Source: a virus (Duplodnaviria; Heunggongvirae; Uroviricota; Caudoviricetes). From it: 6,621 bases of DNA. Positions 3,259 through 6,557 of this stretch are shown piece after piece. Numbering within the stretch: the first letter of the stretch is position 1; each line of letters opens with the position of its first letter. Made by a program: the position numbers and the translations under genes. The notes below the pieces were generated by a model. It did not search any database. It had not been told where the DNA came from and worked only from the letters and a program-made list of their open reading frames with translations. The stretch lies in the IMG/VR virus record IMGVR_UViG_2740892234_000004; one strand, 5' to 3'.

Positions 3259-3804
3259 TCATATTGCCCCCAGCATGGTGGTGACCATCGCCATCAGTGG
3301 ACCAGCCAGATCCGGGTCCACACGAAACATCGACACAATGCCTTCACTCATCTCCTTCAGTTTCTGGTGGCGTGGTGCGTTGAGAATGACAGCCTGTTTT
3401 GCCTCACTGAGTTCCTTTTCCATTTCAGCCAGCCGAGCCATGAAGCTATCCTGCCCAACCAGGTGGCCGCGATATTCCAGCGGTAGTACCGCCAGAATTG
3501 CCGGGGTCAGTTCACGCACGTTATTTCGGTATTTTTCAGAATCGAATTTGTTATCGAGGAAGCGGAACAGCTTCTGGCGTGCACGGCTGACATCATCAGG
3601 GAAATCGATGGTGCCGCCGCCCTGCTCCCGATACTCATTCACAATGAGTGCGGCAACAACATCCTGATTATCTGCAGCCGACCAGGCGCGAACGGCATCA
3701 CGGATTTTTTCGTGGCCTGGCGCCTGTTTTGTTTGAGAACGATTTATCACCGCAGTCGGGCTAAATCCGCTAGTCTGTTGGTATGTAAGTGATTGCATAG
3801 TCAT
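3259..3804 (-). CDS. YdaT-like protein in the cII position (lysogeny-establishment regulator analog), 181 aa
   Basis: Located between cro-like gene and O, where lambda has cII, but far longer than lambda CII. Segments AALIVNEYREQGGG and LTPAILAVLPLEYRGHL resemble what I recall of Rac-prophage YdaT (recollection, not searched). Start could be the ATG at 3802-3804 or the ATG two codons downstream (3796-3798), which has better SD spacing. Confidence 0.6.
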   Translation of the reverse strand: MTMQSLTYQQTSGFSPTAVINRSQTKQAPGHEKIRDAVRAWSAADNQDVVAALIVNEYREQGGGTIDFPDDVSRARQKLFRFLDNKFDSEKYRNNVRELTPAILAVLPLEYRGHLVGQDSFMARLAEMEKELSEAKQAVILNAPRHQKLKEMSEGIVSMFRVDPDLAGPLMAMVTTMLGAI

Positions 3805-3828
3805 TGCCTTATCAGTTAACGCCGCAGT

Positions 3829-4056
3829 TTAGGCGGCAGAATTACTCGCGTTAAACAATGGTGCGAGGTCGGGACGAATATCTGCTGGTTTAATCTTTCC
3901 ACCAGTGGCTGAGACAATTTTCATTACATAGCGGGCATCAATTCCGCCACCGTGTAGCCAACGCCAAACAGTGGGTTGGGCTACACCGCATAGATCTGCC
4001 AGTCGTTTTTGACTACCTGTAATACTGATTGCGAGTTGAATGGTTTGATTTGTCAT
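3829..4056 (-). CDS. Cro-like / YdaS-like HTH transcriptional regulator, ~75 aa
   Basis: Small basic protein MTNQTIQLAISITGSQKRLADLCGVAQPTVWRWLHGG... with a helix-turn-helix signature; diverges from the cI-like gene across a promoter/operator region. AGGA about 7 nt upstream of ATG 4054-4056. The ORF track begins at a TTG (4060-4062) two codons upstream. Confidence 0.75.
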   Translation of the reverse strand: MTNQTIQLAISITGSQKRLADLCGVAQPTVWRWLHGGGIDARYVMKIVSATGGKIKPADIRPDLAPLFNASNSAA

Positions 4057-4087
4057 TATCAATTCCTATTGGTATTGCAATGAATAG

Positions 4088-4116
4088 ATAATAGCAATGC
4101 GTATTAACCCAATCAA
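4088..4116 (-). promoter_or_regulatory. PR-like promoter driving the cro-like gene
   Basis: On the minus strand: -35 TTGATT (complement of 4111-4116), 17-nt spacer, -10 TATTAT (complement of 4088-4093); about 25 nt upstream of the cro-like RBS. Overlapped by operator-like motifs. Confidence 0.45.
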
Positions 4117-4125
4117 TAGCAAAAC
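4090..4125. promoter_or_regulatory. Operator-like motifs (OR): AATAGCAATGCGTATTAA (4090-4107) and AATAGCAAAAC (4115-4125)
   Basis: Both motifs recur downstream at 6013-6050 (16/18 and 11/11 identical); they overlap the -10 and -35 of the PR-like promoter. A perfect palindrome ATTGCAAT lies at 4074-4081. Confidence 0.4.
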
Positions 4126-4130
4126 GTGTT

Positions 4131-4166
4131 TTGACCATCAATACGCAAGCGTATAAATTAAAACTT
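4131..4166 (+). promoter_or_regulatory. PRM-like promoter for the repressor, likely producing a leaderless transcript
   Basis: -35 TTGACC (4131-4136), 15-17 nt spacer, -10 TATAAAT (4152-4158); predicted start about 4165-4167 coincides with the ATG at 4167, and there is no SD, as for lambda cI from PRM. Confidence 0.45.
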
Positions 4167-4859
4167 ATGAAAAAAGAAACTCTTGCTGATCGCTTAAACC
4201 TAGCGATGGAACAATCTGGAATGTCTCAAGGCGCTCTTGCAAAGGCGTCTGGCGTAGCTCAACCCACAATCTGGAGACTGACAAGCGGCAACGCGCGCGG
4301 CTCAACAAAAATTGTTGAAATAGCTAATGCATTGGGTGTTCGAACTGAGTGGCTCTCATCAGGCATAGGCCCGATGAGAAATGACGGTCAACAATCAGGG
4401 AAGCCTGCTGTCAACCATTCCAAATACTTCAAGATTGACGTTCTTGATATAGAAGTCAGTGCCGGGCCGGGTGTCATCAATCGTGAGTTTGTAGAAGTTC
4501 TACGCTCGGTTGAGTACTCGTTTGACGATGCTCGTCACATGTTCGATGGCAGGAAGGCGGAAAATATCCGCATCATTAACGTGCGTGGTGACAGCATGTC
4601 AGGAACGATCGAACCAGGTGATCTGCTGTTCGTTGATATCACGGTTAAATCTTTCGACGGTGATGGTATCTATGCGTTTCTGTACGACGACACAGCCCAT
4701 GTAAAGCGTCTGCAAATGATGAAGGATAAGCTGCTGGTTATCTCTGATAACAAGAGCTACTCACCTTGGGACCCGATCGAGAAAGACGAGATGAACCGGG
4801 TGTTCATCTTCGGTAAGGTTATTGGGAGCATGCCGCAGACGTATAGGAAGCATGGGTAG
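4167..4859 (+). CDS. cI-like prophage repressor: N-terminal HTH plus C-terminal S24 (LexA-like) autopeptidase domain; 230 aa from ATG 4167
   Basis: HTH region LADRLNLAMEQSGMSQGALAKASGVAQPTIWRLTSG; candidate Ala-Gly cleavage site (VSAGPG, codons 4461-4466); catalytic Ser in GDSM (4593-4595) and Lys in VKRL (4704-4706). The ORF-track start at 4131 is a TTG that is itself the -35 hexamer, so I prefer ATG 4167. Confidence 0.85.
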   Translation: MKKETLADRLNLAMEQSGMSQGALAKASGVAQPTIWRLTSGNARGSTKIVEIANALGVRTEWLSSGIGPMRNDGQQSGKPAVNHSKYFKIDVLDIEVSAGPGVINREFVEVLRSVEYSFDDARHMFDGRKAENIRIINVRGDSMSGTIEPGDLLFVDITVKSFDGDGIYAFLYDDTAHVKRLQMMKDKLLVISDNKSYSPWDPIEKDEMNRVFIFGKVIGSMPQTYRKHG

Positions 4860-4932
4860 CCATACAATAGAAGTTTTAAGATTTAAGACAATATCGTAAA
4901 TTAACTGTATATGTGATCAGGTGAATGCCATA

Positions 4933-5874
4933 ATGGATGCGGGCAACAATTCGGAAACCAATGATATGAAGTTCAGGATAGTATACGACGGTCCGGCACT
5001 GGAAACGCATGAAATGAACGTGCGAGACCTTGCTCCTGCCCTTCTATCACTATCAGATGCATTAGAGGAAGCCGGTAAAACTCTCTACGGAAACAAGACT
5101 GTTGTTTCTGTAAAAGTCAATGCATCATTTAAAGCTGGCTCATTTGGAATAGATCTGGTTGCCTCATCTACATCTTGGTTCAAACAGGCTGTTGATTTTT
5201 TATCCGGCGATTCAGCAACAGCCGCTGCGAATTTGATTGCTTTTATTGGACTCTGTCCTGGTTCTAAAGAAAAAATATGCAAAGGCCTAATTCAACTGAT
5301 AAAATGGATAGGTCCAAGGAAAATAAAAAAATTACACAATTTGCCTGATAGCAACATCGAAGTCTTTGTTGATGACGAAAGCGAGATCTACGACAGTAAC
5401 GTTATTGAACTTTATAAAAATATTAAACTTCGCTCTTCATTACAAGAAGTTATAAGTAAGCCATTAGAGCAGGAAGGCATTGACAGCTTTGCCTCTACTG
5501 TCGATGATGGTTTGACATTCATGACGATCAACAAGCAAGAAGCACATTATTTCAAAGTCAATCTACCAGCAGAATCAATAATTTCAGAGTACACAGTAGA
5601 GAAAGCCCTTCAAATTAAAAATATTTCCTTCAATGAAGGAAGCCGGTGGCGGTTTTCTGATGGTGCCAGTAGCTTTTTGGCTGAAATAAAAGACCAGAAA
5701 TTCATCAGCGATATTGATAACAACACCTTAAATTTTTCTAAAGGTGATATGTTACTTGTAGATTTAAAAGTAACTCAATATATGATCGGAGATGCCATAA
5801 AAACCATATTCGAAATTGAGCATGTAAAAAAACAGTTGAATCCTCAAAGGCAAATAGATCTTCCATTCGAATAA
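4933..5874 (+). CDS. Orphan protein of unknown function (313 aa from ATG 4933; 317 aa from GTG 4921) in the rexAB-equivalent slot downstream of the repressor; candidate lysogenic-conversion or phage-exclusion moron
   Basis: Long uninterrupted ORF, same strand as repressor, 61-73 nt downstream of its stop. AGGTGA (4918-4923) lies 9 nt before ATG 4933; another candidate start is ATG 4966 (MKFRIVYDG...). Followed immediately by a strong intrinsic terminator. Visibly AT-rich. I recognise no catalytic motif, Walker box or transmembrane segment by eye. Confidence 0.7.
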   Translation: MDAGNNSETNDMKFRIVYDGPALETHEMNVRDLAPALLSLSDALEEAGKTLYGNKTVVSVKVNASFKAGSFGIDLVASSTSWFKQAVDFLSGDSATAAANLIAFIGLCPGSKEKICKGLIQLIKWIGPRKIKKLHNLPDSNIEVFVDDESEIYDSNVIELYKNIKLRSSLQEVISKPLEQEGIDSFASTVDDGLTFMTINKQEAHYFKVNLPAESIISEYTVEKALQIKNISFNEGSRWRFSDGASSFLAEIKDQKFISDIDNNTLNFSKGDMLLVDLKVTQYMIGDAIKTIFEIEHVKKQLNPQRQIDLPFE

Positions 5875-5879
5875 AGATA

Positions 5880-5906
5880 CCCGGCCACCGTGCCGGGTTT
5901 TCTTTT
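5880..5906 (+). terminator. Rho-independent terminator ending the repressor/moron transcription unit
   Basis: Stem CCCGGC (5880-5885) / GCCGGG (5892-5897), 6-nt loop, then TTTTCTTTT (5898-5906); begins 6 nt after the stop codon at 5872-5874. Confidence 0.8.
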
Positions 5907-6012
5907 GCCTCCCCTCATCACACAAACCGTTCAAAAAACCACCACGACCTCGCTTCAGTTATCGCTATGCGATTCAAGTCACAAAATTAATTCTTTTTGC
6001 CATCAAACATTT

Positions 6013-6078
6013 AATAGCAAAACACATCTAACAATAGCAATAAGTATTAATATCACCAATAGCAATAGCTATTATCAC
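6013..6078. promoter_or_regulatory. OL-like operator cluster with possible PL-like promoter
   Basis: AATAGCAAAAC (6013-6023), AATAGCAATAAGTATTAA (6033-6050), AATAGCAAT (6058-6066), plus TATCACC twice (6051-6057, 6072-6078). Weak rightward promoter candidate: -35 TTAATA (6047-6052), 17 nt, -10 TATTAT (6070-6075). Confidence 0.35.
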
Positions 6079-6350
6079 CATGTCGCAACAACACAACGAT
6101 ACGGCAACCACCTGATTCACCGTTGCGATGACCGCTTAGATCCGCAGCTTGAATTTCAGCAGGCTCCGGGGAGTGCGAGGGGTGAAACGGACGCGTGAAC
6201 GTCGGTGTGACCAGCTGAAATCAACTCAACACTTCATACCTCAGTTGCTTCAACGAGGCGACTTAGTTATGACAACCGGCGGCCATCCACCGCCAGATAC
6301 TGCGCAACCCCTTATTTGTTCAGCAGCCCAGCTTACGGGCAGGAGTTTTT

Positions 6351-6557
6351 ATGGTTCATCAACATTACGGAACGCAGACCGTTAATCGCGGTGCGGTCAT
6401 GCCAGGAATGCTGGTCAAACACAAAGATGGAACCTGGACTGCATCAGCTAATTTACGCGGACGGCTTTATCTGCATCGCGGCATCGAGCGCACTTATACC
6501 CGTGATTTGCTCGTGGAAGTTTTTCTCGACGGACGCGGCAACGGCCTGAATCACTAA
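6351..6557 (+). CDS. Hypothetical small protein, 68 aa
   Basis: ATG at 6351 preceded by AGGAG (6341-6345) with 5-nt spacer; stop TAA 6555-6557. Lies downstream of the OL-like region, in the position of a first leftward early gene. No recognisable motif; not Arg-rich like lambda N. Confidence 0.5.

Follow-up and report, generated by a model that had tools for sequence, protein, structure and literature searches.

A repressor-linked candidate exclusion gene of the PDC-S42 family in the cI-to-terminator slot of a lambdoid prophage

Organization of the locus

The IMG/VR record IMGVR_UViG_2740892234_000004 provides 6,621 nucleotides of a phage of the class Caudoviricetes (the window, by which we mean the whole of this stretch), in which an intact gene for a 313-residue protein lies directly downstream of a cI-like repressor gene and on the same strand. 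The protein belongs to a family already catalogued as a defense candidate, PDC-S42 of PADLOC; what is added here is the anatomy of the slot that the gene occupies, the exchange of cargo at that slot, and the fold of the protein.

The open reading frame (ORF) list of the window gives this gene as a GTG-initiated 317-aa ORF (4921..5874, + strand), but the ATG at 4933, giving the 313-aa protein (MDAGNNSETNDMKF...), is preceded by the Shine-Dalgarno sequence AGGTGA with an 8-nt spacer and is also the start used in RefSeq. An identical protein (WP_000338655.1) is encoded by a prophage of Escherichia coli AF22 (locus L001, 12074-13015), and the same protein is present on at least 1,000 contigs, where it is labelled 'hypothetical' every time; a deposited variant of 302 aa begins at M12. 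In E. coli STEC388 (NZ_CP041425.1, 3561438-3563263) the gene is split by IS1A, and the match falls into two pieces over 1,826 bp. The GC content of the gene is 37.7%, with 34% at third codon positions (GC3), compared with 48% and 52% respectively for cI, a difference in composition that is typical of acquired cargo.

The repressor is readily identified by its Pfam matches to Peptidase_S24 (E 1.5e-18) and HTH_3 (E 1.5e-6) and by its match to the repressor family phrog_4 (E 1e-69), and RefSeq annotates an XRE-family regulator at the equivalent coordinates of the AF22 prophage. Only 73 nt separate its stop codon from the ATG of the downstream gene, and a signal scan of this spacer finds neither a terminator-like nor a consensus promoter-like site. 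Four nucleotides past the end of the gene there is a hairpin (5879-5898) with a 7-bp stem, six of whose pairs are G-C, and with TTTTCTTTT after it; the computed folding energy of -16.6 kcal/mol corresponds to z = -3.2 relative to shuffled sequences. The original prediction, that a real gene directly follows the repressor on the same strand and is closed by a strong terminator, is therefore borne out on both counts. A 102-aa ORF at 5890-6198 overlaps the terminator and the operator region and lacks RefSeq annotation, and we judge it to be spurious. Scanning the window for Rfam families and for tRNA genes gave no match. There is also a 17-nt imperfect inverted repeat (82% complementary) between 4916-4932, at the start of the gene, and 6100-6116, beyond the OL-like region, which is probably due to chance.

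A rexAB-type slot in the immunity region

Five copies of the operator-like sequence AATAGCAA are present in the window, where 0.24 would be expected; two lie between the cro-like gene and cI and three lie downstream of the terminator. The two clusters are related more broadly, in that a 49-nt segment of the OR-like region is repeated at 6033-6081 with 73% identity, and promoter-like hexamers overlap both of them (4116..4088 on the - strand and 4131..4159 on the + strand in the OR-like region, and 6047-6075 in the OL/PL-like region). Further to the right is a kil-like gene, the equivalent of which in the AF22 prophage is annotated as 'phage encoded cell division inhibitor protein' and is followed by Gam, Bet and Exo. 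As read from these features, the order of cro, OR, cI, cargo, terminator, OL/PL and kil is the lambda cI-rexA-rexB arrangement. Because the operator-like repeats flank the repressor-cargo pair on both sides, the gene occupies the equivalent of the rexAB slot, as originally proposed, and it has in common with lambda rexA and rexB the interval from cI to OL, the orientation of cI and a place ahead of the operon terminator.

Exchange of cargo between the repressor and the terminator

Searching the segment 4167-6557 against 5,426 complete E. coli genomes reveals that its flanks are matched in 2,236 of the genomes and the whole stretch in only 34. The contents of the slot differ even among prophages that share the kil region and carry a repressor that is the same or 90% identical. 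In one variant the slot holds genes for a DUF6932 protein and a 310-aa protein, which together are the PADLOC candidate PDC-M63A/B, and in another a 353-aa protein and an ASCH protein, which are PDC-M11A/B; elsewhere there is a DUF3800 protein, two small hypothetical proteins, proteins annotated as BamD or BamE, or nothing at all. Judged from these comparisons, the cI-to-terminator slot is a compact cargo hotspot with further PADLOC defense candidates.

The boundaries of the exchange are sharp. In pairwise BLAST alignments homology to the other variants stops at 4858/4859, which is the cI stop codon, and homology to both the cargo variants and the empty slot returns at 5867-5880, which corresponds to the cargo stop codon and the terminator. 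The terminator is thus part of the backbone, and the exchange of cargo is confined exactly to the interval from the repressor to this terminator; the stretch 4860-5910 singled out in the original prediction coincides almost exactly with the exchangeable cassette plus the shared terminator. The confinement of the swaps to the repressor-terminator interval is also the best available, albeit indirect, support for co-transcription of the cargo with cI. Coordinates of the features are collected in Table 1.

Table 1. Features of the immunity region, parts of the PDC-S42 protein, and corresponding slots in related prophages
Feature	Position	Strand	Basis
PDC-S42 / LAPAL-family gene, 313 aa	4933..5874	+	ORF, profile matches, AlphaFold2 model
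cI-like repressor, HTH_3 + Peptidase_S24, 230 aa	4167..4859	+	Pfam, phrog_4, RefSeq
Cargo-specific leader, 29% GC, carries AGGTGA (4919-4924)	4860..4932	+	sequence, signal scan, GC, pairwise BLAST
Intrinsic terminator of repressor-cargo unit	5879..5906	+	scan, folding, pairwise BLAST
cro-like early regulator, divergent from repressor	3829..4062	-	YdaS_toxin/HTH profile E 1e-14, phrog_35; HTH protein in L001
OR-like control region, two AATAGCAA repeats (4090, 4115), divergent promoter-like sites	4088..4159	.	repeat count, scan
OL/PL-like region, three AATAGCAA repeats (6013, 6033, 6058), promoter-like site 6047-6075	6008..6081	.	
kil-like cell-division inhibitor, first gene of leftward early operon	6351..6557	+	ORF, L001 annotation
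Predicted N-terminal strand-helix-strand-strand unit, invariant Y18-D19-G20-P21-A22-L23 and D32-L33-A34-P35-A36-L37	residues 12-80		
Low-confidence stretch	residues 83-118		AlphaFold2
Central hydrophobic, low-confidence segment FLSGDSATAAANLIAFIGLC	residues 89-108, codons 5197..5256	+	hydropathy, pLDDT
Predicted middle alpha/beta domain	residues 119-210		AlphaFold2
Predicted C-terminal OB fold	residues 215-302, codons 5575..5838	+	five-strand barrel, helix between strands 3 and 4
Same-backbone E. coli slots with other content	L101 1075-2477; L102 1074-2490; L104 926-1774; L105 834-1553; L103 empty		

Family membership and distribution

The protein had been described as carrying no recognizable motif, and for Pfam this holds, since there is no credible match (the best is DUF2004, E 0.11); a search of PDB sequences also returned nothing (best E 5.3). 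The protein is nonetheless a full-length member of three profile families. It matches PADLOC PDC-S42 with an E value of 3.2e-86 (residues 11-312 against positions 3-300 of the 302-position profile), NCBIfam NF053583, 'LAPAL motif-containing putative phage structural protein', with 270.5 bits against a cut-off of 60, and PHROG 3243 (phrog_3243) with an E value of 1.2e-116. The LAPAL motif is present at residues 32-37 and is invariant or nearly so across the family. Besides PDC-S42 there are no PADLOC matches at E <=10, and no PD-T4, PD-T7 or PD-Lambda model fits. The gene can thus not be called unrecognized or new as a defense candidate. The PDC set comprises 145 candidates, which were picked out independently of prophages, from genes lying within or next to BREX, DISARM and type I restriction-modification (RM) loci (bioRxiv 10.1101/2024.01.29.577857). 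All three names are bioinformatic labels to which no function, mechanism or experiment is attached, and a literature search found no mention of PDC-S42, the LAPAL motif, the protein accession, or the NCBIfam and PHROG numbers.

A profile search recovers 5,260 clusters (50% identity, E <=1e-3), of which the best 150 are nearly all full-length at about 300 aa. Relatives are encoded by 324 stretches in the GTDB species-representative set (185,579 species genomes scanned), and these include candidate phyla radiation (CPR) bacteria, Melainabacteria and Desulfobacterota. The family is thus large and uniform, and the contexts described next show it as a mobile single gene, at home in the accessory slots of prophages and in defense neighborhoods.

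The genomic contexts of the homologues are varied. In two different Pseudomonas savastanoi prophages the homologue lies directly 3' of an S24 repressor, and in Halopseudomonas and two metagenome contigs a small ORF intervenes between the S24 repressor and the homologue; in a Rac-like E. coli prophage a 60%-identical homologue follows a RacR-type repressor. In Burkholderia it follows a same-strand 162-aa gene without a Pfam match. More distant homologues (27-33% identity) lie by the integrase or in the lysogeny module of Lactobacillus phage A2 (ORF19), Listeria phage vB_LmoS_188 (gp27) and Bifidobacterium phage PMBT6. Adjacency to a repressor is common among the closer relatives sampled and is not universal. 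In a Mu-like element of Methylobacter the homologue is in the early region, upstream of mor, and in Mu-like prophages of Halothiobacillus (L042 4341-7131) and Vreelandella (L087 4306-7089) it lies between the G-like (Phage_tail_S) and I-like (Mu-like_Pro) genes, an interval that we take to be the accessory slot for anti-CRISPR (Acr) loci in Pseudomonas Mu-like phages.

Acinetobacter pittii and its relatives (L005-L009, 8001-11067) have an islet in which the homologue is followed by a same-strand 210-aa protein with a weak HIRAN match, a 78-aa ORF, and a convergent gene for a 304-aa BstA_C protein, about 1.2 kb from the homologue. The islet is conserved, and the DNA beyond it differs between strains. 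We also examined the neighbors of the family gene in 70 species-representative loci, with neighbors taken as the longest naive ORFs, such that the counts are rough and are noisier in GC-rich genomes. Defense-type neighbors in these loci include mad3/mad8 of MADS (3 loci), HEC-05, OLD-, AriA- and PtuA-like ATPases, components of type I, II and III RM systems including methylases, MzaA, PDC-M63B and PD-Lambda-5_B. In a metagenome-assembled genome of Nitrospinota (L030 3865-8524) the homologue, apparently solitary, seems to be inserted between carA, the small chain of carbamoyl-phosphate synthetase (CPSase) with its GATase domain, and a probable carB (an 866-aa ORF), an odd place for it within a housekeeping operon; CPSase large-chain domains were found in one of 71 downstream neighbors.

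Predicted structure and conserved residues

An AlphaFold2 model built from a 58-sequence alignment (mean predicted local distance difference test score, pLDDT, 83.6; predicted template modelling score, pTM, 0.66) divides the protein into four parts (Table 1), and fold searches were conducted against PDB and BFVD. As modelled, the C-terminal domain is an oligonucleotide/oligosaccharide-binding (OB) fold, having the five-stranded barrel in which strands 3 and 4 are separated by a helix. This domain holds the majority of the invariant residues (F233, K238, W239, G244, D254, F257, K270 and D272), and the family alignment contains no conserved His, Cys, Ser or Glu hinting at catalysis.

Between the N-terminal unit and the middle domain is a segment that the model does not place confidently, with pLDDT of 49-61 across residues 89-108. 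The original prediction reported no evident membrane helices, which is correct for the protein itself, where the best 19-residue Kyte-Doolittle mean (residues 89-107) is 1.31 and falls below the threshold of 1.6. Among 256 family members, however, the hydropathy maximum is always at about residues 80-99, and in 44% of them this conserved hydrophobic segment (approximately residues 85-115) reaches 1.6. The longest charge-free run, with a median of 21 aa and a maximum near 40 aa, begins somewhere within residues 70-115 in 80% of the 256 members and is rich in Leu, Gly and Ala across the family; glycine-zipper-like motifs are modestly enriched, being found in 107 of the 256 against 76 +/- 6 in shuffled sequences. 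A second AlphaFold2 model, of member P0085 whose segment is strongly hydrophobic, again fails to place the segment with confidence (pLDDT 45-62). As a lead, the segment may be a conditional membrane or oligomerization element.

Full-length structural similarities are weak. Foldseek against BFVD aligns 311 columns with a DUF6575 protein from Siphoviridae sp. ctoic9 (E 2.9e-8) and also finds Q6NE06 of Leptospira phage LE1 (E 4e-5), with TM-scores of only 0.30-0.39. DUF6575 is listed as a domain of one validated PD system (Vassallo et al. 2022, PMC9519451); at the sequence level it is matched by none of 46 family members. Pfam DUF7946 is matched weakly by 13 of the 46 over N-terminal residues 10-97, the best at 18.5 bits and E 0.0022 against a threshold of 27 bits and spanning only the N-terminal half of the profile, and the window protein itself has no match.

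Comparison with known exclusion systems

One parallel is with lambda RexA and RexB, an exclusion function made in the lysogen, and the position of the PDC-S42 gene suggests that the same logic may apply here. The proteins themselves are unrelated: the hhalign probability with RexA is 0.2%, and there is no Pfam match to RexA or RexB. The genetic organization also differs, as lambda has two genes and here a single ORF lies between the cI stop codon and the terminator, with no polytopic membrane partner and no second RefSeq coding sequence. We view the locus as a repressor-linked putative prophage exclusion gene built on an unrelated, uncharacterized protein family. The earlier expectation that the protein would not be a RexB-like or SieB-like membrane protein is upheld by these searches and by the sub-threshold hydropathy described above; the SieB-type membrane exclusion proteins are set apart by the lack of a predicted transmembrane helix in the window protein, a distinction that the many relatives reaching the threshold make less clear-cut for the family.

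BstA of prophage BTP1 is an abortive-infection protein encoded just downstream of the prophage repressor and widespread in Gram-negative prophages; it has a KilA-N-like N-terminal domain and a BstA C-terminal domain, and a functionally defined self-immunity element, aba, overlaps the start of the gene (PMC8585504). The PDC-S42 gene resembles it in being a single gene for a protein of about 300 aa next to a repressor. It is nevertheless not of the BstA type, a point that had been left open: the window protein has no Pfam match to KilA-N or BstA_C at E <=1, and we reject kinship given an hhalign probability of 0.1% against the Acinetobacter BstA_C protein. The tail assembly blocker Tab was likewise rejected as a possible prophage analogue, as the tab gene lies between terminase genes and is known only in close relatives of JBD26. 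The OB domain invites comparison with the single-stranded nucleic-acid binders PriB, SSB/Rim1, RPA and Stn1/Ten1 and the anticodon-binding domains of class IIb aminoacyl-tRNA synthetases; identity to these is 9-16%, the window protein has no SSB or tRNA_anti Pfam match, and its OB fold is the last third of a three-part protein.

What does the PDC-S42 gene do?

We favor the explanation that the gene is accessory cargo of a lambdoid prophage immunity operon and encodes a single-protein superinfection-exclusion or abortive-infection factor expressed in the lysogen, a reading to which we assign slightly better than an even chance; that the protein has an anti-phage role of some kind seems if anything a shade more probable. 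Read-through from the repressor promoter would make the protein in the lysogen, where it would exclude other phages or abort their infection. Several points weigh against this explanation. Co-transcription of cI and cargo is something we infer from the absence of terminator and promoter signals between them, and status as a PDC candidate is guilt by association only. By the same rough counts, S24 is found upstream in just 4 of the 70 species-representative loci and HTH_3 in 5, and many neighbors there are housekeeping genes; adjacency to a repressor is seen in the mutually unrelated Pseudomonas, Halopseudomonas and Rac-like E. coli prophages but is a minority arrangement in these 70 loci, and the idea that homologues always adjoin repressors is rejected. 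Homologues are present also in lytic-phase regions of Mu-like phages, a placement compatible with any accessory function, counter-defense included. For the N-terminal and middle domains, nothing informative was matched in PDB or BFVD, and in the window protein the central segment falls short of the hydropathy threshold and the glycine-zipper motif is absent.

Counter-defense is one alternative, in which the OB fold would sequester a host signalling molecule or single-stranded DNA (ssDNA), or inhibit a host nuclease, as a lytic-cycle fitness factor to the benefit of its own phage. The two Mu-like prophages with the homologue in the presumed anti-CRISPR slot, together with the early-region location upstream of mor in Methylobacter, are in keeping with this, and small non-enzymatic binders are typical of anti-defense proteins. 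However, in the window and at least seven other prophages the gene is in the repressor transcription unit, pointing away from the lytic operons and located before the terminator, which is the site of lysogen-expressed genes. In addition, the family was picked up embedded in host defense loci, some members adjoin defense genes outside prophages, and at 313 aa the protein exceeds most known sponges and Acr proteins; we consider this alternative unlikely. Rather less improbable, although still doubtful, is a role outside phage-phage conflict, either in lysogenic conversion or host physiology or as a selfish addiction-type gene that hitch-hikes in permissive slots. The BamD- and BamE-like annotations of other slot cargos, which may be conversion functions, lend this some credence, as do the many homologues with housekeeping neighbors, the carA-carB case included, and the wide scatter of the family. 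On the other side are the lack of a signal peptide, lipobox or enzymatic motif, the recurrence of defense genes as neighbors, and the two co-slot cargos that are independent defense candidates; for an addiction-type gene, no conserved partner antitoxin ORF is present.

The NCBIfam name raises the additional possibility that the protein is a structural component of the virion, for which there is only the curated name and the location of the two Mu-like loci inside a run of head-morphogenesis genes. As we read the locus, the wording of NF053583 conflicts with the genomic context, since in lambdoid prophages the gene belongs to the immunity region, at a distance from the structural genes and in the opposite orientation, and the slot is empty or holds other cargo in prophages with the same backbone; a virion component could not be dispensable in this manner. 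The family is also found outside prophages and has no structural-protein fold match in PDB or BFVD, and we regard a structural role as very improbable indeed.

If the gene does encode a lysogen-expressed exclusion factor, then the lack of a conserved catalytic motif indicates that the protein probably acts by binding rather than by enzymology. The OB fold, in which the aromatic and basic residues best conserved in the family lie (F233, K238, W239, F257, F268 and K270), would be the likely sensor or binding module, the putative ligand being either single-stranded nucleic acid or a protein that an infecting phage produces. The output module might be the invariant N-terminal YDGPAL...DLAPAL domain together with the charge-free Gly/Ala/Leu-rich central segment, and it could arrest the infected cell by oligomerizing or inserting into the membrane, or it could occlude a phage replication intermediate. 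This combination of an OB sensor with a non-enzymatic effector we offer tentatively, as something well short of an even chance. A more specific version is that a single polypeptide here does the work of RexA and RexB combined: the OB fold would sense a phage-specific single-stranded nucleic-acid intermediate or an SSB- or recombinase-type phage protein and release a buried Gly/Ala/Leu-rich segment, which would then abort the infection by oligomerizing in the inner membrane or perturbing it; so detailed a scheme is distinctly unlikely to be right in full.

Were the gene shown to be protective, PDC-S42 would advance from a PADLOC candidate to a validated defense family, and the lambdoid cI-to-terminator slot would become a compact and easily mined defense hotspot in which at least three cargos are independent PADLOC candidates. 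With no characterized relative and no enzymatic motif, protection would probably involve a new OB-fold-based sensing or effector principle, and the spread of the family, which includes the Lactobacillus, Listeria and Bifidobacterium phages, offers many natural variants for work on mechanism. Should the RexA-plus-RexB analogy prove true, it would represent a new non-enzymatic defense mechanism represented by more than 5,000 clusters, from Proteobacteria to Firmicutes, Actinobacteria and CPR bacteria. Finding that the gene is not protective would be a useful negative for guilt-by-association predictors.

Additional features of the prophages

Outside the window, the AF22 prophage carries a second, opposite-strand insertion between the replication genes and the nin region (L001 4628-8036), encoding a 'SNIPE associated domain-containing protein' of 432 aa and an 'HD domain-containing protein' of 515 aa; this is probably another accessory or defense cargo site.

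In the left part of the window there are eight runs of exactly 10 N between 392 and 2596 (at 392, 904, 1146, 1214, 1397, 1750, 2000 and 2587), and the intervening DNA repeats fragments of replication O/P-like genes as neighboring copies of 88-98% identity. Rather than a true tandem duplication, this seems to be a scaffold assembled by joining short contigs that are variants from several related prophages, and the ORFs called within it, whose translations contain XXXX, should not be relied on. Pfam assigns the cro-like and cII-like genes (3259-4062, - strand) to the families 'YdaS_toxin' and 'YdaT_toxin', and PHROGs classes the first as a transcriptional repressor and the second as a CII-like activator; calling them toxins, as the Pfam names do, is probably misleading.

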